NCBI RefSeq assembly: GCF_024502345.1
Contig: NZ_JALDNN010000001.1
DNA: 64,000 bases
Source: Escherichia coli
Lineage (GTDB): Bacteria; Pseudomonadota; Gammaproteobacteria; Enterobacterales; Enterobacteriaceae
Strand: one strand, 5' to 3'
The position numbers were made by a program, and so were the translations under genes. Of this stretch, positions 4,995 through 50,194 are shown piece after piece; the first letter of the stretch is position 1, and every line of letters starts with the position of its first letter. The notes beneath the pieces are model-generated. The model did no database searches. It worked only from the letters and a program-made list of their open reading frames with translations, and was not told where the DNA came from.

Positions 4995-6197
4995 TTAAGA
5001 GAACCAGCTGCCGAACCACTGATGGAATTTCATCATCACGAAATCCCACATCCGACCAAAGAATCCGCCCTCTTCCACATTTTCCATCACGATCAGCGGA
5101 CGCTGCTCAATGGATTTACCGTTAAGCTGGAAATCAATGGTCCCGACAACCTGACCTTTTTTCAGCGGTGCGGTAAGCTGCGGTTCCGTTAACGTGTAGC
5201 TCGCCTTCAGGTTTTTCAGCTGCCCACGCGGTATGGTCACTGAGCCCGCTTCGCCTGCCCCGAGATTCACTTCGCTCTTATCACCAAACCAGACGCGCTG
5301 AGTCACAAAGGTGGCATCAGGTTTAATTGGCGTCACGGTTTCAAAGAAGCGGAAACCCCAGGTCAATAATTTCTCAGACTCATTAAAACGGATACGGTCA
5401 GTTTTCGCCCCCAGCACTACGGAGATTAAACGCATATCGCCCTGGGTAGCCGAAGCAACCAGATTATATCCCGCGCCTGCCGTGGTTCCTGTCTTCATGC
5501 CATCAACATTCAGATTGCTGCTCCACAGCAGACGGTTACGGTTAGGCTGACGAATTTTGTTGAAGGTGAACTCTTTCTCTTTATGAATGGCGTACTCTTC
5601 CGGCACATCGTGGATCAATGCTTTACCCAGCAATGCCATATCGCGCGCGGTACTGAACTGCCCCGGCGCATCCAGACCGTGCACCGTCTGGAAGGTAGTG
5701 TTGGTCAGACCCAGTTTTTTGGCATAACCATTCATCAAACCAATAAATGACTCCTGGCTCCCGGCAACGTAATCGGCCAGCGCAATACAGGCGTCATTAC
5801 CGGACTGGATAATCACACCTTTGTTCAAGTCTGCCACCGAAACCTGATCGCCCGGTTTGAGGAACATTACCGATGAACCACGCAGTGCCGGATTTCCCGT
5901 CGCCCAGGCATCTTTACCGACCGTCACCATATCGGTGAGTTTAATCTTATCGGCCTTAAGCGCCTGCCCAACCACATAGCTGGTCATGATTTTAGTCAGG
6001 CTCGCGGGATCCAGTTTCTCATCCGCGTTGCCTTCTGCCAGCACTTTACCGCTGGCGTAATCCATTAAAATCCATGCACGCGCATCCACGCTCGGCGCTT
6101 CAACGGTTTGTTCCGCCGCGAATGCCGTTGGGGCAAAAAGGAATAAAAATGCAGAACCCGCTGCAAGACCACGAAGGAGAGAGGAGTATTGCGTCAT
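4995..6197 (-). CDS. dacC: D-alanyl-D-alanine carboxypeptidase PBP6
   Basis: 400 aa from ATG at 6197 (track ORF extended by 7 codons); signal peptide, SLTK active-site motif, SGN and KTG motifs. Confidence 0.93.
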
Positions 6198-12693: not shown

Positions 12694-14899
12694 TACGCAG
12701 TTGTTCAATATTGAGATAAAAATGTTCATTAATTCGCTCGATCACGGTTTCAGTGATCTCAACACAGAGGCTGTTCGCCTTCAGGCCATTTTCTTTCATG
12801 ATGGTGGTAAAACGCTCATGAAAGTGCGGTTCGTTTAACTGCCAGGGCGAAACATTAATATGCAGTAAGAAATCATCCTTCAGCGACGCACGCTGACTAA
12901 AATGTCTGAATTCACCCATTGCCGTTTTAATAATCTGATAACCCAGCTCAATGATAAACCCGATATCTTCAGCAATGGTAATGAACTTCAGCGGTGAAAT
13001 GATCCCCCGCTCCGCAGAAACCCAACGGCACAACGCCTCCGCGCCCAGAATGGCGCGGGTGTTAATATCAACGATCGGTTGATAGACGAGGAATAGTTCG
13101 CCAATTTCCATTGCATGGCGAATATTACGCGCAATCCAGATATTCTCTTCTATTTCATTGAGTTTCGCGTCATCACAGAAAATAAACTCGGAGAACATAT
13201 GGTCACGGATACTGGAAATCGCCAGTTTCAGTTTTTCTGCGTAACTCCAGGCGTTTTCCCCCTGCAAAGGTTCACAAATGGCAGACTTATGGATGCGCAG
13301 ATTGCGGTAGCCAAAGCTGCTGTCAAAATCGTTTACCATCGCTATTTTACGGGTAAATGTCTGTACATTTTCCCGACACAGAAGTAAATAGAGATCGGCA
13401 TTGAATGTCACGATATCGCAGCATTGCGCATATTTCTCGGCAATTCGCTGACACAATTTCCTGACGATTTTATTGCGTTCATCAACACCAAACACCGCTT
13501 CCACGGCTTCCAGACCACACAGTTTGATGATCCCCACAGCCAGATACTGATTATTGTTGGACTCAATAATCGCCATATTTTTAATAAAACCGCTTTCCTG
13601 ATCGTAAGAGATCAGTGAGAGCAATTTATTTGACCGTTCAATTTCGGCATCTTTCATTTCCGCGATCGAATTTTTGATGCTGATAATCTCTTTCGCATCG
13701 CCTTCGCGAATTTTCAGAGCCTCGATCTGATCCGTTGAGTCGGGCAAAAACGCCAGCGTATTAACCAGCTCGGTCATTTCAGAAAATTGCCGACGGAACA
13801 CACGAGTGGTCATGAAATATACCACCAGCAACACGATAATAATGAACGCAAACGGTAGATAAAAAAGTTTATCTGATGCGTTCAATAAATTACCGCCAGG
13901 ATAATAAAAATAGATTTCGAACAATGCATTATTTGGCACTGCTGATGTCTTTGCAATATACTCCGTATCGACAGAATCAATAATATTATAATTACCTTCG
14001 CTATTATAAATAATCAGTTTTTCACGAGCGAGTTGATTCTTGGCAATGATCTCATGACCTTGTTTCAAAAATAGAACTTCATCATTAGCGCTGATTTGAT
14101 CAAGATACTCGTTCAAATACCGCCAGTTTAAATCGACATGAATTTTATCTACCGCTAACAAATCGTGATCTTTGCCGTTGATACGTAGCGTAAAAGAGAT
14201 ACATTTTTTACCCGGACGATCAAAGCAATTGTATGCCGGATTCCAGCTGTTGTTAGAGTCATCTGAAGCCACCGACCACGGTCGTTTCGATGGGTTAAAA
14301 TCGGCAAAAATAACCCGCCCTGACTCGTCGACAAGCGGTCCATTTACTTGTTCCTGATGATAAACAACGATTTTATCATTCGCCCTCCGTGAAAAGAGAT
14401 AATATTTATTATCATCAAGTACCAGTCCCACCGAGTCTAAAAATGGCATCATTTCCATTTTCAGAATCACGGCGCGTTGAATCTCCTCTGTATTTTTTAA
14501 TAAATACAGTGAGTCCTTTAATGTCAGGGCCGAACGTTCAATATCTTTAAAGAAATAGCCAACGTTTTTCTGAATAAGTTCAAAGCGGCTATCGGCACGT
14601 TTTACCGCGCGTTCCGATACCAGTTGATAGTTAATGATGAAAAAAAGACCAATAAATGACAGTGCTGCCAATAAAAATAAAATTATCAGCCTTATCTTTA
14701 TCTTTTCGTATAAACTCAGCATGTTAATACATTTAACAAAATAACTATCTGAACGCTGTGCCGCTGCAAAAATAGTCCCTTGCTGCGGCTTTTTAACCAA
14801 ATTACCCGATTCTACAAAATCAGCAGAAAGTTACAACACTTGCTTAGGGCAATAATTTCCTGTGAGGTGATTACCCTTTCAAGCAATATTCAAACGTAA

Positions 14900-27775: not shown

Positions 27776-28591
27776 ATGAGCGTAAAAGTTATCGTCACAG
27801 ACATGGACGGTACTTTTCTTAACGACGCCAAAACGTACAACCAACCACGTTTTATGGCGCAATATCAGGAACTGAAAAAGCGCGGCATTGAGTTCGTTGT
27901 CGCCAGCGGTAATCAGTATTACCAGCTTATTTCGTTCTTTCCTGAGCTAAAGGATGAGATCTCTTTTGTCGCGGAAAACGGCGCACTGGTTTACGAACAT
28001 GGCAAGCAACTGTTCCACGGCGAACTGACCCGACATGAATCGCGGATTGTTATTGGCGAGTTGCTAAAAGATAAGCAACTCAATTTTGTCGCCTGCGGTC
28101 TGCAAAGTGCATATGTCAGCGAAAATGCCCCCGAAGCATTTGTCGCACTGATGGCAAAACACTACCATCGCCTGAAAGCTGTAAAAGATTATCAGGAGAT
28201 TGACGACGTACTGTTCAAGTTTTCGCTCAACCTGCCAGATGAACAAATCCCGTTAGTGATCGACAAACTGCACATAGCGCTCGATGGCATTATGAAACCC
28301 GTCACCAGTGGTTTTGGCTTTATCGACCTGATTATTCCCGGTCTACATAAAGCAAACGGTATTTCGCGGTTACTGAAATGCTGGGATCTGTCACCGCAAA
28401 ATGTGGTAGCGATTGGCGACAGCGGTAACGATGCGGAGATGCTGAAAATGGCGCGTTATTCCTTTGCGATGGGCAATGCTGCGGAAAACATTAAACAAAT
28501 CGCCCGTTACGCTACCGATGATAATAATCATGAAGGCGCGCTGAATGTGATTCAGGCGGTGCTGGATAACACATCCCCTTTTAACAGCTGA
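27776..28591 (+). CDS. ybiV: HAD-superfamily sugar phosphatase YbiV
   Basis: 271-aa ORF, DMDGTF and GDSGND motifs; paralog of ybjI. Confidence 0.9.
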
Positions 28592-35205: not shown

Positions 35206-36789
35206 ATGAATTTAACCCTCAAAGAATCGCTTGTTACCCGTAGCCGGGTATTTAGCCCGTGGACTGCGTTCTACTTTTTACAGTCGCTATTAATTAACCT
35301 CGGCTTAGGTTACCCCTTCAGTTTGCTCTACACCGCTGCGTTTACGGCTATTTTGCTTTTGCTATGGCGAACATTGCCTCGCGTACAAAAAGTTCTGGTC
35401 GGTGTCAGTTCGCTGGTGGCGGCTTGTTATTTCCCTTTTGCTCAGGCCTACGGCGCGCCTAATTTCAATACATTGCTGGCATTGCACTCCACCAATATGG
35501 AAGAGTCGACCGAAATCCTGACGATTTTTCCGTGGTACAGCTACCTGGTCGGCTTATTTATTTTTGCGCTCGGCGTAATAGCAATCAGGCGAAAAAAAGA
35601 GAATGAAAAAGCGCGCTGGAATACCTTCGACAGCCTGTGTCTGGTATTCAGTGTGGCGACATTTTTTGTTGCTCCCGTGCAAAACCTGGCCTGGGGTGGC
35701 GTATTTAAACTGAAAGATACTGGCTATCCGGTATTTCGTTTTGCTAAGGATGTCATCGTCAATAATAACGAGGTGATTGAAGAGCAAGAACGGATGGCAA
35801 AACTTTCCGGAATGAAAGATACCTGGACGGTCACTGCCGTTAAGCCGAAGTATCAGACCTATGTGGTGGTGATCGGTGAAAGCGCGCGTCGCGATGCCCT
35901 CGGTGCCTTTGGCGGTCACTGGGACAATACCCCGTTTGCCAGCAGCGTTAACGGTTTGATATTTGCTGACTACATTGCCGCCAGTGGCTCCACGCAGAAA
36001 TCGCTTGGCTTAACGCTCAATCGCGTAGTCGATGGCAAACCACAGTTTCAGGATAACTTTGTCACCCTGGCAAATCGCGCGGGCTTCCAGACCTGGTGGT
36101 TTTCCAACCAGGGCCAAATCGGCGAATACGATACTGCTATCGCCAGCATCGCCAAACGTGCAGATGAAGTGTACTTCCTGAAAGAAGGTAATTTTGAAGC
36201 AGATAAAAACACGAAAGACGAAGCGTTACTGGATATGACCGCTCAAGTGCTGGCGCAAGAGCACTCGCAACCGCAGCTGATTGTTCTGCATCTGATGGGC
36301 TCGCATCCGCAGGCCTGCGACAGGACACAAGGCAAATACGAAACCTTTGTGCAATCGAAAGAAACGTCGTGCTATCTCTATACCATGACGCAAACGGACG
36401 ATTTACTGCGCAAGCTGTACGATCAGTTACGCAACAGCGGCAGCAGCTTCTCGCTGGTTTACTTTTCTGACCACGGTCTGGCCTTTAAAGAGCGCGGCAA
36501 AGACGTGCAATACCTTGCCCATGATGATAAATATCAGCAAAATTTCCAGGTGCCTTTTATGGTCATTTCCAGCGACGATAAAGCGCATCGTGTGATTAAA
36601 GCCCGCCGCTCAGCCAATGACTTCTTAGGCTTTTTCTCCCAGTGGACGGGAATTAAAGCGAAGGAAATTAACATCAAATACCCGTTTATATCTGAGAAGA
36701 AAGCCGGGCCGATATACATCACCAACTTCCAGTTACAGAAGGTGGATTACAACCATCTCGGAACCGATATTTTCGACCCGAAACCTTAA
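35206..36789 (+). CDS. opgE: phosphoethanolamine transferase OpgE (YbiP)
   Basis: 527-aa ORF, N-terminal TM helices and C-terminal sulfatase-like domain. Confidence 0.9.
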   Translation: MNLTLKESLVTRSRVFSPWTAFYFLQSLLINLGLGYPFSLLYTAAFTAILLLLWRTLPRVQKVLVGVSSLVAACYFPFAQAYGAPNFNTLLALHSTNMEESTEILTIFPWYSYLVGLFIFALGVIAIRRKKENEKARWNTFDSLCLVFSVATFFVAPVQNLAWGGVFKLKDTGYPVFRFAKDVIVNNNEVIEEQERMAKLSGMKDTWTVTAVKPKYQTYVVVIGESARRDALGAFGGHWDNTPFASSVNGLIFADYIAASGSTQKSLGLTLNRVVDGKPQFQDNFVTLANRAGFQTWWFSNQGQIGEYDTAIASIAKRADEVYFLKEGNFEADKNTKDEALLDMTAQVLAQEHSQPQLIVLHLMGSHPQACDRTQGKYETFVQSKETSCYLYTMTQTDDLLRKLYDQLRNSGSSFSLVYFSDHGLAFKERGKDVQYLAHDDKYQQNFQVPFMVISSDDKAHRVIKARRSANDFLGFFSQWTGIKAKEINIKYPFISEKKAGPIYITNFQLQKVDYNHLGTDIFDPKP

Positions 36790-45602: not shown

Positions 45603-45863
45603 ATGAAAAAGTGCCTCACACTACTGATTGCCACCGTCCTGAGCGGAATCTCTCTCACGGCTTATGCCGCGCAACCGATGAGTAACCTGGACAGCGGTCA
45701 GCTACGGCCCGCCGGTACCGTTTCGGCAACTGGCGCATCAAACCTAAGCGATCTGGAGGATAAACTGGCAGAAAAAGCGCGCGAGCAAGGCGCGAAAGGT
45801 TATGTCATTAATTCCGCAGGCGGAAATGACCAGATGTTCGGTACTGCAACCATCTACAAATAA
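45603..45863 (+). CDS. mcbA: DUF1471 (YdgH/BhsA/McbA family) small periplasmic protein McbA (YbiM)
   Basis: 86 aa from ATG 45603 (track ORF extended by 48 codons); signal peptide; paralog of ybiJ. Confidence 0.85.
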   Translation: MKKCLTLLIATVLSGISLTAYAAQPMSNLDSGQLRPAGTVSATGASNLSDLEDKLAEKAREQGAKGYVINSAGGNDQMFGTATIYK

Positions 45864-45875
45864 CCCCACCAACGT

Positions 45876-45905
45876 AACTGCATTCGCCTCTGGATGCAGT
45901 TTTCG
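45876..45905 (+). terminator. stem-loop after mcbA
   Basis: actgcat...atgcagt then T-rich tract. Confidence 0.45.
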
Positions 45906-45996
45906 CCTGTTTTGTAATCAAAAAACATCAAATATGAACGCAATGTAAATAAATGTATTTCTTTTTCGCGCAATGGGTGATAGAAAATCGCGCCAA

Positions 45997-46028
45997 GTGA
46001 TAATGCTTATCAAAATTATTATCACTTG
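45997..46028. promoter_or_regulatory. Fur box upstream of fiu
   Basis: GATAATGCTTATCAAAATTATTATCA resembles the GATAATGATAATCATTATC consensus. Confidence 0.7.
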
Positions 46029-46127
46029 CACGAACACTATCACGAGATTAACAGTGGCATCGCATCCGCAGAGAGGCTTTCTCGTGGCAGTGAAAATTTC
46101 AACATATAAAAAAAAGTCACCTGCAAA

Positions 46128-48410
46128 ATGGAAAACAATCGCAATTTCCCTGCCAGACAATTTCATTCGCTCACGTTCTTTGCCGGTCTTTGTATTGGCA
46201 TCACGCCTGTGGCTCAGGCACTCGCCGCCGAAGGGCAAACTAACGCGGATGACACGCTGGTTGTCGAAGCATCAACGCCTTCGCTTTATGCGCCACAACA
46301 ATCTGCCGATCCGAAATTCTCGCGTCCGGTAGCGGATACTACCCGCACGATGACGGTGATTTCTGAACAAGTGATTAAAGATCAGGGCGCAACCAACCTT
46401 ACCGACGCGCTCAAAAACGTCCCCGGCGTGGGTGCGTTTTTTGCGGGTGAGAACGGTAACTCCACCACTGGCGACGCCATTTATATGCGCGGTGCTGATA
46501 CCTCTAACAGTATTTATATTGATGGCATTCGCGATATCGGCAGCGTCTCGCGCGACACCTTCAATACTGAGCAGGTCGAAGTGATTAAAGGGCCTTCCGG
46601 CACCGACTACGGGCGCAGCGCGCCGACGGGCTCGATCAATATGATCAGCAAGCAGCCGCGCAATGATTCCGGCATTGACGCCTCCGCCAGTATTGGCAGC
46701 GCCTGGTTCCGCCGCGGCACGCTGGACGTCAATCAGGTCATTGGTGATACCACTGCGGTGCGCCTGAATGTGATGGGCGAAAAAACGCACGATGCCGGAC
46801 GCGACAAAGTCAAAAATGAGCGTTACGGCGTCGCCCCTTCTATCGCTTTTGGCCTTGGTACAGCGAATCGTTTGTATCTTAATTATCTGCATGTCACCCA
46901 GCACAACACGCCAGACGGCGGCATTCCGACCATCGGTTTGCCGGGTTATTCTGCCCCATCTGCGGGAACAGCGGCTCTGAATCATTCCGGAAAAGTTGAT
47001 ACTCATAACTTTTACGGCACGGATTCCGATTACGACGATTCGACCACCGACACCGCCACCATGCGTTTTGAGCACGACATCAACGATAACACCACCATTC
47101 GCAATACTACCCGTTGGTCGCGCGTAAAGCAGGATTACCTGATGACGGCGATTATGGGCGGGGCGTCGAATATTACTCAGCCCACCAGCGATGTGAATAG
47201 CTGGACCTGGTCACGCACGGCGAATACCAAAGATGTGAGTAATAAAATTCTCACCAACCAGACCAACCTGACCTCGACGTTCTATACCGGTTCTATCGGT
47301 CATGATGTCAGTACCGGCGTGGAATTTACCCGTGAAACGCAGACTAACTACGGCGTTAATCCGGTGACGTTACCCGCGGTAAATATTTATCATCCTGACA
47401 GCAGCATTCATCCCGGCGGCCTGACGCGCAACGGCGCAAACGCCAATGGTCAGACGGATACCTTCGCAATTTACGCCTTCGATACGCTGCAAATCACCCG
47501 TGATTTTGAGCTGAACGGCGGGATCCGTCTGGATAATTATCATACTGAATATGACAGTGCCACCGCCTGCGGCGGCAGCGGACGCGGTGCCATCACCTGC
47601 CCAGCTGGTGTGGCAAAAGGTTCTCCGGTCACCACCGTCGACACCGCCAAGTCGGGCAATCTGGTGAACTGGAAAGCCGGGGCGCTGTATCACCTGACGG
47701 AAAACGGTAATGTCTATATTAACTATGCCGTTTCCCAGCAGCCTCCGGGCGGCAACAACTTCGCCCTTGCGCAGTCTGGCAGCGGTAACAGTGCCAACCG
47801 CACCGATTTTAAACCGCAAAAAGCCAACACCAGCGAGATTGGCACCAAATGGCAGGTTCTGGATAAACGTCTGTTGCTCACCGCCGCGCTGTTCCGTACT
47901 GATATCGAAAATGAAGTTGAGCAAAATGATGACGGAACTTACTCGCAATACGGTAAGAAACGCGTCGAAGGCTATGAGATATCCGTGGCCGGGAATATCA
48001 CTCCCGCGTGGCAGGTGATTGGCGGCTATACCCAGCAAAAAGCAACCATCAAAAACGGCAAAGATGTTGCCCAGGATGGTTCCTCATCGCTGCCGTATAC
48101 CCCGGAGCACGCCTTCACCTTATGGAGCCAATATCAGGCAACCGACGATATCTCTGTTGGCGCGGGCGCACGCTATATCGGCAGTATGCATAAAGGTTCA
48201 GACGGCGCGGTGGGAACGCCAGCATTTACCGAAGGTTACTGGGTCGCCGATGCCAAACTGGGGTATCGGGTTAATCGCAATCTCGACTTCCAGCTAAACG
48301 TCTACAACCTGTTTGATACTGATTACGTCGCCTCAATCAACAAGAGCGGCTACCGTTATCACCCGGGCGAGCCAAGAACCTTCTTGCTCACAGCCAATAT
48401 GCATTTCTGA
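46128..48410 (+). CDS. fiu: TonB-dependent catecholate siderophore receptor Fiu
   Basis: 760-aa ORF; signal peptide, plug and barrel domains, C-terminal aromatic residue. Confidence 0.93.
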
Positions 48411-48451
48411 TTCAGATGTGGGGCGCAGGCCCCACTTTTTGGAGAACTTGT

Positions 48452-49129
48452 ATGATGTACCACATTCCCGGCGTGTTATCGCCACAGGACGTCGCCCGGT
48501 TTCGCGAACAACTGGAACAAGCCGAATGGGTGGATGGACGCGTCACCACCGGCGCACAAGGTGCGCAAGTTAAGAACAATCAACAGGTCGACACCCGCAG
48601 CACGTTATACGCCGCCCTGCAAAATGAGGTGCTGAACGCGGTTAACCAACATGCTTTGTTCTTTGCCGCGGCCTTGCCGCGTACCCTTTCCACGCCGCTG
48701 TTTAATCGCTATCAGAACAATGAAACCTATGGTTTCCATGTGGATGGCGCAGTACGCAGCCATCCACAAAACGGCTGGATGCGTACTGACCTTTCTGCCA
48801 CGCTGTTTTTAAGCGATCCACAAAGCTACGACGGCGGCGAACTGGTCGTTAATGACACCTTCGGACAACATCGGGTAAAACTCCCGGCAGGCGATCTCGT
48901 GTTGTATCCCTCCAGCAGCCTGCATTGCGTGACACCCGTAACCCGCGGCGTACGAGTGGCATCATTTATGTGGATCCAGTCGATGATCCGCGATGATAAA
49001 AAGCGCGCCATGCTGTTTGAACTGGACAACAATATTCAGTCGCTGAAAAGCCGCTACGGCGAAAGTGAAGAGATCCTGTCGCTGCTTAATCTTTATCATA
49101 ATCTGCTGCGGGAATGGTCGGAGATCTGA
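48452..49129 (+). CDS. ybiX: Fe(II)/2-oxoglutarate-dependent oxygenase (PKHD-type hydroxylase) YbiX
   Basis: 225 aa from ATG 48452; HxD...H iron-binding pattern. Confidence 0.88.
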
Positions 49130-49202
49130 TGCTTGAACTGCCCGAGTTCGTCCCTGGATTAGCTACACTTAACTGTACAAGTATTGATATGGGGAGGTCG
49201 AT

Positions 49203-49469
49203 ATGGCATCCGGTTGGGCTAACGATGACGCCGTCAACGAACAGATCAACAGTACAATTGAAGATGCGATTGCCCGCGCTCGGGGTGAAATTCCGCGTGG
49301 CGAAAGCCTGTATGAATGTGAAGAGTGCGGTGCCCCCATCCCGCAAGCCCGTCGGGAAGCCATTCCTGGCGTGCGCTTATGCATTCATTGTCAGCAGGAG
49401 AAAGATTTACAAAAACCAGCTTATACAGGATATAATCGCAGAGGTTCGAAAGACAGCCAGTTACGTTAA
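49203..49469 (+). CDS. ybiI: DksA/TraR-family C4-type zinc-finger protein YbiI
   Basis: 88-aa ORF with CEECGAPIP...CIHCQ zinc finger. Confidence 0.85.
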   Translation: MASGWANDDAVNEQINSTIEDAIARARGEIPRGESLYECEECGAPIPQARREAIPGVRLCIHCQQEKDLQKPAYTGYNRRGSKDSQLR

Positions 49470-49733
49470 CTACAACTGGCGAGATGTATAGCGAGTATAA
49501 TTTGTATTTTGCGTGGCATTCCGTGCCTTTAACGCTGTCGTGACTGCCACGCTGCATAAAACAAGTCCATAAGTACAACAAATAAATGGTTTATCAGTAT
49601 GTTAGATATCAATCAATTTATTTGAACAAGGCGGTCAATTCTCTTCGATTTTATCTCTCGTAAAAAAACGTGATACTCATCACATCGACGAAACAACGTC
49701 ACTTATACAAAAATCACCTGCGAGAGATTAATT

Positions 49734-49994
49734 ATGAAAACTATCAATACTGTTGTTGCTGCTATGGCTCTTTCAACTCTGTCATTTGGCGTGTTTGCCG
49801 CGGAACCGGTAACGGCATCCCAGGCACAGAACATGAATAAAATCGGCGTGGTTTCTGCCGATGGCGCATCCACCCTCGATGCCCTGGAAGCGAAACTGGC
49901 TGAGAAAGCCGCGGCAGCCGGTGCCAGTGGATACAGCATCACTTCCGCCACCAACAACAATAAATTAAGCGGTACTGCGGTAATTTATAAGTAA
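49734..49994 (+). CDS. ybiJ: DUF1471 small periplasmic protein YbiJ
   Basis: 86-aa ORF with signal peptide; shares LEAKLAEKA and VIYK motifs with mcbA. Confidence 0.85.
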   Translation: MKTINTVVAAMALSTLSFGVFAAEPVTASQAQNMNKIGVVSADGASTLDALEAKLAEKAAAAGASGYSITSATNNNKLSGTAVIYK

Positions 49995-49997
49995 TTC

Positions 49998-50120
49998 GTA
50001 GGACGGATAAGGCGTTTACGCCGCATCCGGCAACAGATGCCTGATGCGACGCTACCGCGTCTTATCAGGCCTACAAAATCCGAACCGTTGGACGGATCAG
50101 GCGTTTACGCTACGTCCAGC
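49998..50120. repeat. REP element cluster (three REP-like palindromes) downstream of ybiJ
   Basis: gtaggacggataaggcgtttacgccgcatccggc, gcctgatgcgacgctaccgcgtcttatcaggcctac, ggacggatcaggcgtttacgctacgtcc. Confidence 0.8.
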
Positions 50121-50194
50121 ACAAGTATTTCCCTGTCTGTTTGCCGACAGACGCATATGCTCTAACCCTCATTGATCCTATGTTACCCTTGTTT

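Follow-up and report, generated by a model that had tools for sequence, protein, structure and literature searches.

The fiu-ybiX-ybiI locus, which occupies positions 45,997–49,469 of the 64,000-nucleotide stretch of Escherichia coli DNA analyzed here (the window), raises the question of whether the gene for an outer-membrane siderophore receptor and its two followers, encoding an Fe(II)/2-oxoglutarate (2OG) oxygenase and a small zinc-finger protein, serve one task or only share a transcript. A first-pass annotation had described the three genes as a single Fur-controlled cluster. The segment is an ordinary, well-annotated, iron-repressed locus that is already known, and its organization, its control by Fur, and the partnership of receptor and oxygenase have been published. 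Our answer, which we hold with good confidence, is that a Fur-repressed operon with a probable internal attenuator has been joined by a separate, σS-driven, TraR-like gene, ybiI. The elements concerned are as follows.

45998..46024, no strand assigned: tandem Fur box, TGATAATGCTTATCA and TCAAAATTATTATCA with an overlap of 3 bp; top match to the Fur motif within the window, conserved, with a published chromatin immunoprecipitation-exonuclease (ChIP-exo) peak
45977..46004, plus strand: candidate σ70 promoter of fiu, GTGATA, 16 nt, GATAAT; from a consensus scan, 9/12 matches
46128..48410, plus strand: fiu, TonB-dependent catecholate siderophore receptor, 760 aa
48418..48440, plus strand: intercistronic hairpin, GUGGGGC-GCAG-GCCCCAC then UUUUU, proposed leaky terminator/attenuator
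48452..49129, plus strand: ybiX, PKHD/PiuC-type Fe(II)/2OG oxygenase, 225 aa; ribosome-binding site GGAGA at 48441–48445
49162..49172, plus strand: σS-type extended −10 element GCTACACTTAA by pattern match, C at −13, hexamer TACACT, in the ybiX-ybiI spacer
49203..49469, plus strand: ybiI, TraR-like C4 zinc-finger protein, 88 aa, with the tail GYNRRGSKDSQLR; ribosome-binding site GGGGAGG at 49191–49197

Results

Fur-dependent expression of the three genes

The coordinates and gene descriptions of the first-pass annotation proved exact. Fiu, YbiX, and YbiI each scored far over the cut-offs of their Pfam and NCBIfam equivalog models; the spacer between the TonB-dependent receptor gene and ybiX is exactly 41 nt, ybiX carries the oxygenase domains as well as its equivalog match, and the assignment of ybiI to the C4 zinc-finger proteins of the DksA/TraR family, with a length of 88 residues, agrees with its zf-dskA_traR and equivalog matches. 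Fiu consists of a Plug (PF07715) and a TonB-dependent barrel (PF00593) domain and reached 1508 bits with NF007349, whose cut-off is 686; its translation begins with a hydrophobic leader up to AQALA, followed by DDTLVVEAS, which were read by eye as a signal sequence and a TonB box.

The Fur box that had been placed about 100 bp upstream of fiu is a tandem box lying 104–130 nt upstream of the fiu ATG (46128). Two models were run over the whole 64-kb window, the 7-1-7 motif TGATAATNATTATCA with mismatch counting and a 19-bp consensus. The best 7-1-7 copy in the window, TGATAATGCTTATCA at 45998–46012, has one mismatch, and a second copy at 46010–46024 has two. The 19-bp consensus was matched at 15 of 19 positions at 45999–46017, and under its strict form, allowing at most three mismatches, nothing was found anywhere in the window; the box is therefore a typical imperfect Fur site. 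The window contains five 7-1-7 sites with two or fewer mismatches, where shuffles predict 0.17, and the pair at 45998–46024 is the sole intergenic pair among them. The other three, with two mismatches each (14400–14414, 28519–28533, and 36522–36536), all fall within long ORFs. For comparison, 80 YbiX loci were gathered from one-genome-per-species contigs with a single YbiX protein as the query, the non-enterobacterial homologs being about 50% identical. A Fur site with two or fewer mismatches was present upstream in 46 of 79 fetched loci, where 0.04 would be expected per 450 nt, and with few exceptions the Enterobacterales loci keep the tandem box at about −130/−118 relative to their receptor gene. 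The −10-like hexamer GATAAT (45999–46004), a candidate from the consensus scan, falls within the box, and we infer a σ70 promoter at 45977–46004 whose −10 element would be covered by Fur. Numbers in the ChIP-exo data fit an older K-12 coordinate version, which we take to run about 778 bp lower in this region. Converted in this way, the Fur peak at 840869–840893, labeled "fiu-ybiX, intergenic" (PMC10164565 supplements), would correspond to 116–140 nt upstream of the fiu ATG, or about 45988–46012 of the window, on the box.

Published RNA sequencing agrees with control by this site. On deletion of fur in MG1655, mRNA levels rose from about 38 to 1760 for fiu, about 10 to 380 for ybiX, about 22 to 185 for ybiI, and about 31 to 75 for ybiJ, while mcbA was unchanged; the log2 fold changes of the three genes were 5.5, 5.2, and 3.0, respectively, and in W3110 they were 10.0, 7.1, and 5.3, with 3.1 for ybiJ and mcbA not recovered (PMC10164565). 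The Fur-1 iModulon includes ybiI, ybiX, and fiu, a separate iModulon is named "ybiIXL," and ybiI is induced by serum in extraintestinal pathogenic E. coli. Fur control extends over fiu, ybiX, and ybiI, and the proposal that the ybiX and ybiI transcripts depend on Fur and iron is borne out, since both are derepressed in the fur deletion strains rather than independent of it. The gene ybiJ is mildly derepressed as well (log2 1.2–3.1), presumably through read-through; no canonical terminator was found after ybiI, which fits the milder effect on ybiJ. A 9-bp imperfect palindrome, GCCAGUUACGUUAACUACAACUGGC, spans the ybiI stop codon (49456–49480) and has no U-tract.

The three genes share a strand, are separated by short spacers (41 and 73 nt), and are known from the literature to be co-expressed. 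A single simple transcription unit would contain no internal terminator or promoter, and here the terminator-like hairpin at 48418–48440 and the σS promoter at 49162–49172 both lie inside. The locus is, in other words, a complex operon with two internal control points, not a simple one.

A hairpin kept in the fiu-ybiX spacer

The first of these control points ends 16 nt before the ybiX ATG, and its 61-nt context folds with −21.6 kcal/mol (z = −2.96). With per-sequence hairpin detection, a strong GC hairpin was found in the fiu-ybiX spacer of 42 of 43 enterobacterial loci, with energies from −7.5 to −27 kcal/mol, mostly −14 to −19, and with 3′ ends 13–37 nt, mostly 16–22, upstream of the ybiX ATG. 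In the one exception, from Escherichia sp. MOD1-EC7003 (L005), a simple scan gave an unrelated weak hairpin within an inserted repetitive extragenic palindromic (REP) element. The stems belong to at least five unrelated types among genera: GUGGGGC/GCCCCAC, GCGGGGCG/CGCCCCGU, GCCGCAG/CUGCGGC, CGCCACCUG/CAGGUGGCG, and REP-like. The hairpin is conserved as a structure, not as a sequence. RNAalifold on a MAFFT alignment of the spacers returned no consensus structure, and hairpins with differing stems were put out of register by the alignment.

In the fur deletion strains, mRNA falls from fiu to ybiX by 4.6-fold in MG1655 and 5.9-fold in W3110, as calculated from the values in PMC10164565. Because a conserved hairpin stands where the mRNA drops, a leaky intrinsic terminator is the simplest reading, and the hairpin is probably a leaky internal terminator of this kind. 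The 8 nt after the stem contain 1–7 U across the enterobacterial loci. The main alternative, which we hold to be less probable, is that the hairpin instead stabilizes the upstream fiu segment of the mRNA at its 3′ side or blocks its processing, or else that it acts in the translation of ybiX, given that the U-tract is degenerate in several genera and yet the stem and its distance of 16–22 nt to the ybiX ATG are kept. REP hairpins, moreover, are known stabilizers of mRNA, and in Pseudocitrobacter the spacer hairpin is replaced by REP-like ones. Against such a role stand Escherichia, Kluyvera, Pantoea, and some Tatumella, in which 5–7 of the 8 nucleotides directly 3′ of the stem are U, the canonical form of an intrinsic terminator, and we continue to favor termination. 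A ybiX promoter inside the 41-nt spacer was also considered and rejected, as there is neither room for one nor a consensus match. The same spacer has been reported to carry an insertion sequence (IS) conferring cefiderocol resistance and a gut-adaptive mutation. In Escherichia whittamii (L006, 5800–5945) and in L005, a bacterial interspersed mosaic element of about 170 nt, comprising two REP elements, widens it from 41 to 212 nt; in the former, a GUGGGGU-GAAA-GCCCCAC hairpin with a U-tract still adjoins ybiX.

YbiX and its pairing with the receptor

YbiX contains 2OG-FeII_Oxy_3 and PKHD_C domains and scored 520 bits with the YbiX equivalog. The iron triad of the HxD...H type (H96, D98, and H158) and the 2OG-binding R168 are present; across 46 diverse homologs, D98 and R168 are invariant and both histidines are at least 90% conserved. 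The AlphaFold2 (AF2) model, with a predicted local distance difference test (pLDDT) score of 97, shows a double-stranded β-helix fold with the PKHD_C helical domain, and homologs have been solved from Shewanella (3DKQ) and as Pseudomonas aeruginosa PiuC (9GHL and 9QN0–9QN4). By its residues and predicted fold, YbiX appears to be a complete Fe(II)/2OG oxygenase. The closest characterized folds are those of protein prolyl hydroxylases, and no hydrophobic, signal peptide-like stretch was seen at the N terminus when read by eye. YbiX also matches PHROG 61, "2OG-Fe(II) oxygenase" (E = 6e-49), and therefore phages carry PiuC/YbiX-like auxiliary genes.

The coupling of receptor and oxygenase that the first-pass annotation pointed out holds far beyond E. 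coli. The 80 loci extend from Escherichia to Tatumella and include beta-, gamma-, alpha-, and epsilonproteobacteria, and in 79 of them ybiX is preceded, on its own strand, by the gene for a Fiu-like receptor or by what remains of one, usually with a spacer of less than 90 nt; only Tatumella sp. JGM91 has no receptor. This result reproduces published synteny analyses, in which the pairing (PiuA-PiuC, CciT-CciO, and Fiu-YbiX) was described as co-conserved and functionally linked. In two Kluyvera species (L031 and L036), fiu is split into two ORFs. That the adjacency is fortuitous and ybiX is unrelated to iron uptake is effectively refuted by the retention of the pair across Proteobacteria, by the Fur co-regulation of fiu and ybiX, and by genetic dependence published for CciT-CciO, for cirA ybiX mutants, and for resistance to catechol conjugates. 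The expected ybiX phenotype with siderophore-conjugated drugs has in fact already been described: a cirA ybiX double deletion raises the minimum inhibitory concentration of cefiderocol far above that of either single deletion, and a nonsense mutation in ybiX gives resistance to a catechol-peptide nucleic acid conjugate. Recurrent piuC mutations are likewise found in cefiderocol-resistant P. aeruginosa, where PiuC is said to affect piuA expression.

The substrate that had been suggested, either the imported catecholate or a cellular target, is the same speculation as that in the literature, in which our search for a biochemical function or substrate of PiuC/YbiX found none. The usual guess is that YbiX processes the imported catecholate, siderophore, or iron complex in the cytoplasm, whereby iron would be released, the compound detoxified, or an inward gradient maintained. 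We regard this as a serious contender but the less probable one, because Fiu delivers its cargo to the periplasm only, and cefiderocol acts in the periplasm and yet loss of ybiX or piuC causes resistance; the resemblance to protein prolyl hydroxylases and the lack of a substrate in the literature found also speak against it. Since the drug acts in the periplasm, the loss of the enzyme gives resistance, and YbiX has no obvious signal peptide, its action is likely directed at a target other than the drug. We infer that YbiX supports the expression or function of the transporter from the cytoplasm, without modifying the drug, and for its target a cellular molecule, probably a protein, is slightly favored over a metabolite derived from the siderophore.

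The promoter, family, and distribution of ybiI

The extended −10 element of σS promoters follows the pattern KCTAYRCTTAA. On either strand of the 64 kb this pattern occurs once, as GCTACACTTAA at 49162–49172, 31 nt before the ybiI ATG, and C-13 type −10 elements stand at the equivalent place in Citrobacter and Klebsiella. C at −13 is a confirmed determinant of σS promoters. A σS-preferred ybiI promoter has been defined by σS ChIP-seq, rpoS-dependent quantitative RT-PCR, gel shifts, and KMnO4 footprints, and Genomic SELEX (systematic evolution of ligands by exponential enrichment) gave a σS holoenzyme site in the ybiX/ybiI spacer; the element lies within the converted published ChIP and SELEX intervals and agrees with them in position. 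In iron-replete wild-type MG1655, ybiI mRNA (about 22) exceeds ybiX mRNA (about 10) (PMC10164565), as is expected from an independent promoter. The spacer itself has no significant structure (z = 0.37), and read-through from ybiX would therefore be unhindered; a terminator between ybiX and ybiI was rejected on the same ground.

YbiI has a zinc ribbon of the form CxxC-x17-CxxC (C39, C42, C60, and C63) and matched PF01258 (zf-dskA_traR) with 47 bits (cut-off 24.9), TIGR02419 with 62.8 (cut-off 59.7), and its own equivalog with 161 bits. A phmmer comparison with the TraR chains of 5W1S and 6N57 gave E = 2e-11, and an NMR entry of YbiI exists (2KGO). The AF2 model is of low confidence (pLDDT 66), also for the helix at residues 8–28, and the tail GYNRRGSKDSQLR is predicted to be disordered. 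D8 and D9 are invariant, and the stretch before the ribbon is two residues longer than that of TraR (C39 versus C37); D8 or D9 may sit roughly at the position of TraR D6. Overexpression of YbiI rescues dksA auxotrophy, as "data not shown" in the source. Residue 36 (49308–49310), three residues before the first zinc-ligand Cys, is Tyr in this strain, in E. albertii, in Citrobacter amalonaticus, and in one Enterobacter, and His, Thr, or Glu in other genera; the Tyr of TraR comes one position later. K-12 and 2KGO have Asp36, which may be a substitution of the K-12 lineage.

The distribution of ybiI differs from that of the pair. A YbiI-like gene follows ybiX in 30 of the 80 loci, all from Enterobacteriaceae (Escherichia, Citrobacter, Leclercia, Silvania, Pseudocitrobacter, Klebsiella, Raoultella, and Enterobacter). 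It is absent after ybiX in the other 50, including 16 of Enterobacterales: the YbiX loci of Kluyvera, in which ybiJ directly follows ybiX, and those of Pantoea, Rouxiella, Serratia, and Tatumella have none, and none was detected, within the locus sequence examined, in 34 of 34 non-enterobacterial loci. In Citrobacter sp. Awk 4 (L045) and Leclercia adecarboxylata NCTC13032 (L047), fiu and ybiX have become pseudogenes and ybiI is intact. L005 presents the reverse case, with fiu (98% identity) and ybiX intact beside a ybiI pseudogene (5725–5987) that has an in-frame stop and a frameshift, its spacer being partly deleted. In L045, L047, and the two Kluyvera loci L031 and L036, fiu and/or ybiX are fragmented or largely deleted. 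An ortholog with 64% identity in Proteus mirabilis adjoins pyruvate kinase and transporter genes and is unlinked to fiu-ybiX. Relatives are encoded in 885 phage records, the family being PHROG 54; full-length identity is 53–56% for the best of them, which come from phages of Proteus, Cronobacter, Serratia, Klebsiella, and Acinetobacter. E. coli, Proteus, and a Proteus phage have the same C-terminal GYNRRGSKDSQLR, which is not found in TraR, and 16 viral contigs, among them phages of about 90 and about 260 kb, carry this motif exactly.

These observations decide how much of the first-pass cluster stands. Fur control of all three genes does, whereas a single functional module does not. One dedicated module, with YbiI as a specific regulator or partner of uptake by Fiu and YbiX, would explain the common strand and short spacers, the co-expression in the Fur-1 and ybiIXL iModulons, and the Fur dependence of ybiI mRNA. 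It is nevertheless improbable in view of the σS promoter belonging to ybiI itself, the many loci that do without the gene, its independent loss and retention, the unrelated neighbors of the Proteus ortholog, and the full-length phage homologs. We conclude that ybiI is a later, lineage-restricted add-on with its own stationary-phase promoter, evolving independently of fiu-ybiX. A further-reaching proposal, which we put forward tentatively, is that YbiI represents a distinct, phage-related subfamily of TraR-like secondary-channel proteins with the invariant tail GYNRRGSKDSQLR, captured by one enterobacterial clade behind a Fur operon and a σS promoter, so that it would be tied to fiu-ybiX by regulatory hitch-hiking and not by a shared biochemical task. 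If this is true, a stringent-like, ppGpp-independent shift in transcription would set in upon iron starvation and in stationary phase.

Gene neighborhood

Two paralogs of the DUF1471 (YdgH/BhsA-like) family bracket the three genes on the same strand, as they do in most Enterobacteriaceae loci.

45606..45863, plus strand: mcbA (ybiM), DUF1471 paralog, upstream boundary; not Fur-responsive
49734..49994, plus strand: ybiJ, downstream DUF1471 paralog; some Fur-dependent read-through

The order mcbA-fiu-ybiX-ybiI-ybiJ, all on the plus strand within 45.6–50.0 kb of the window and with 264 nt between ybiI and ybiJ, is identical in K-12. Of 5426 complete E. coli genomes, 5417 contain at least 80% of a 3.7-kb query (45900–49600), and 5420 have the block with at least 95% identity; E. 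coli annotations name its products catecholate siderophore receptor Fiu, PKHD-type hydroxylase YbiX, and C4-type zinc finger protein YbiI. A scan against the RNA families of Rfam was negative within the cluster and gave a single match, naRNA4 (78 bits), at a REP-containing mosaic element downstream of ybiJ (50001–50130), a stretch annotated in K-12 with the small RNA (sRNA) ZbiJ and the small protein YbiE.

Discussion

The regulation of the locus can be pictured as follows. With iron, Fur would occupy the tandem box at 45998–46024, where its binding has been shown in published papers, and, as the box seems to overlap the −10 element of fiu, would block transcription. Without iron, the fiu-ybiX-ybiI transcript would be made, part of it running on into ybiJ. 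The hairpin and U-tract at 48418–48440 might terminate or otherwise limit about 80% of the transcripts past fiu, and such attenuation would thereby place the outer-membrane receptor in four- to sixfold excess over the cytoplasmic enzyme. Fiu brings monomeric catecholates and catechol-conjugated β-lactams into the periplasm. YbiX would work within the cytoplasm, its target being something that Fiu-type uptake requires and not the drug. YbiI, to judge from its sequence, would be a separate TraR-like factor that binds RNA polymerase in its secondary channel, its gene having been added downstream in one enterobacterial clade; it would be transcribed by read-through in low iron and, in stationary phase, from its own σS promoter with the −10 element at 49162–49172.

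Several points weigh against parts of this picture. The U-tract is weak in several genera, some loci of Citrobacter and Leclercia having 1–3 U of 8, and the step-down in mRNA could come from differential stability instead of termination. The fiu promoter is a candidate from a consensus scan. As for YbiI, an ungapped register puts its N terminus out of line with the essential D3/D6 of TraR, and the support for its putative binding to RNA polymerase is the rescue of dksA auxotrophy given as "data not shown."

The locus is clinically relevant, as cefiderocol and other siderophore-conjugated drugs enter through Fiu and PiuA-type receptors and the loss of the oxygenase (ybiX or piuC) contributes to resistance. 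Our additions to what has been published are modest. One is the conserved intra-operon hairpin, which probably sets the ratio of receptor to enzyme and through which the IS and point mutations reported in the fiu-ybiX spacer would act; the other is the recognition of ybiI as an independently evolving TraR-like gene, whose membership in the uptake machinery should not be taken for granted.

Comparison with known systems places the two parts of the locus in different company. The piuA-piuC genes of P. aeruginosa and Acinetobacter likewise encode a receptor and a PKHD-type hydroxylase, PiuC, but ybiI-like genes are missing from the non-enterobacterial loci that were examined. In Caulobacter crescentus, cciT-cciO is, like fiu-ybiX, a Fur-regulated pair of a receptor and a 2OG/Fe(II) dioxygenase; the function of the receptor CciT strictly needs the dioxygenase CciO, and Fiu/YbiX was named by the authors of that work as the E. 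coli counterpart. The system differs in that CciT does not import cefiderocol and the Caulobacter operon includes an sRNA and no TraR-like gene.

TraR of the F plasmid is a regulator that acts by way of RNA polymerase's secondary channel and mimics DksA together with ppGpp. YbiI resembles it in the CxxC-x17-CxxC ribbon, the PIPEARR motif, the N-terminal helix, and the short C-terminal helix, and differs from it in being chromosomal and under the control of Fur and σS. Before the ribbon, the helix of YbiI is three residues longer and the linker one residue shorter; the acidic pair is D8-D9 in YbiI versus D3/D6 in TraR, and the invariant 13-residue tail GYNRRGSKDSQLR is found in YbiI and not in TraR. 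A phage counterpart is gp134 of Proteus phage P59, one of the phage "DksA-like zinc-finger proteins" of PHROG 54, which is 56% identical to YbiI over the full length and has an identical C-terminal tail. In phages, the relatives of YbiI lie in early or auxiliary regions beside genes for MazG, phosphoribosyl pyrophosphate synthetase, and nicotinamide phosphoribosyltransferase, not beside iron genes; in P59 (L084, 1144–3900), the YbiI-like gene is near those for a MazG-like pyrophosphatase, ribose-phosphate pyrophosphokinase, and nicotinamide phosphoribosyltransferase, a neighborhood related to nucleotides and alarmones.

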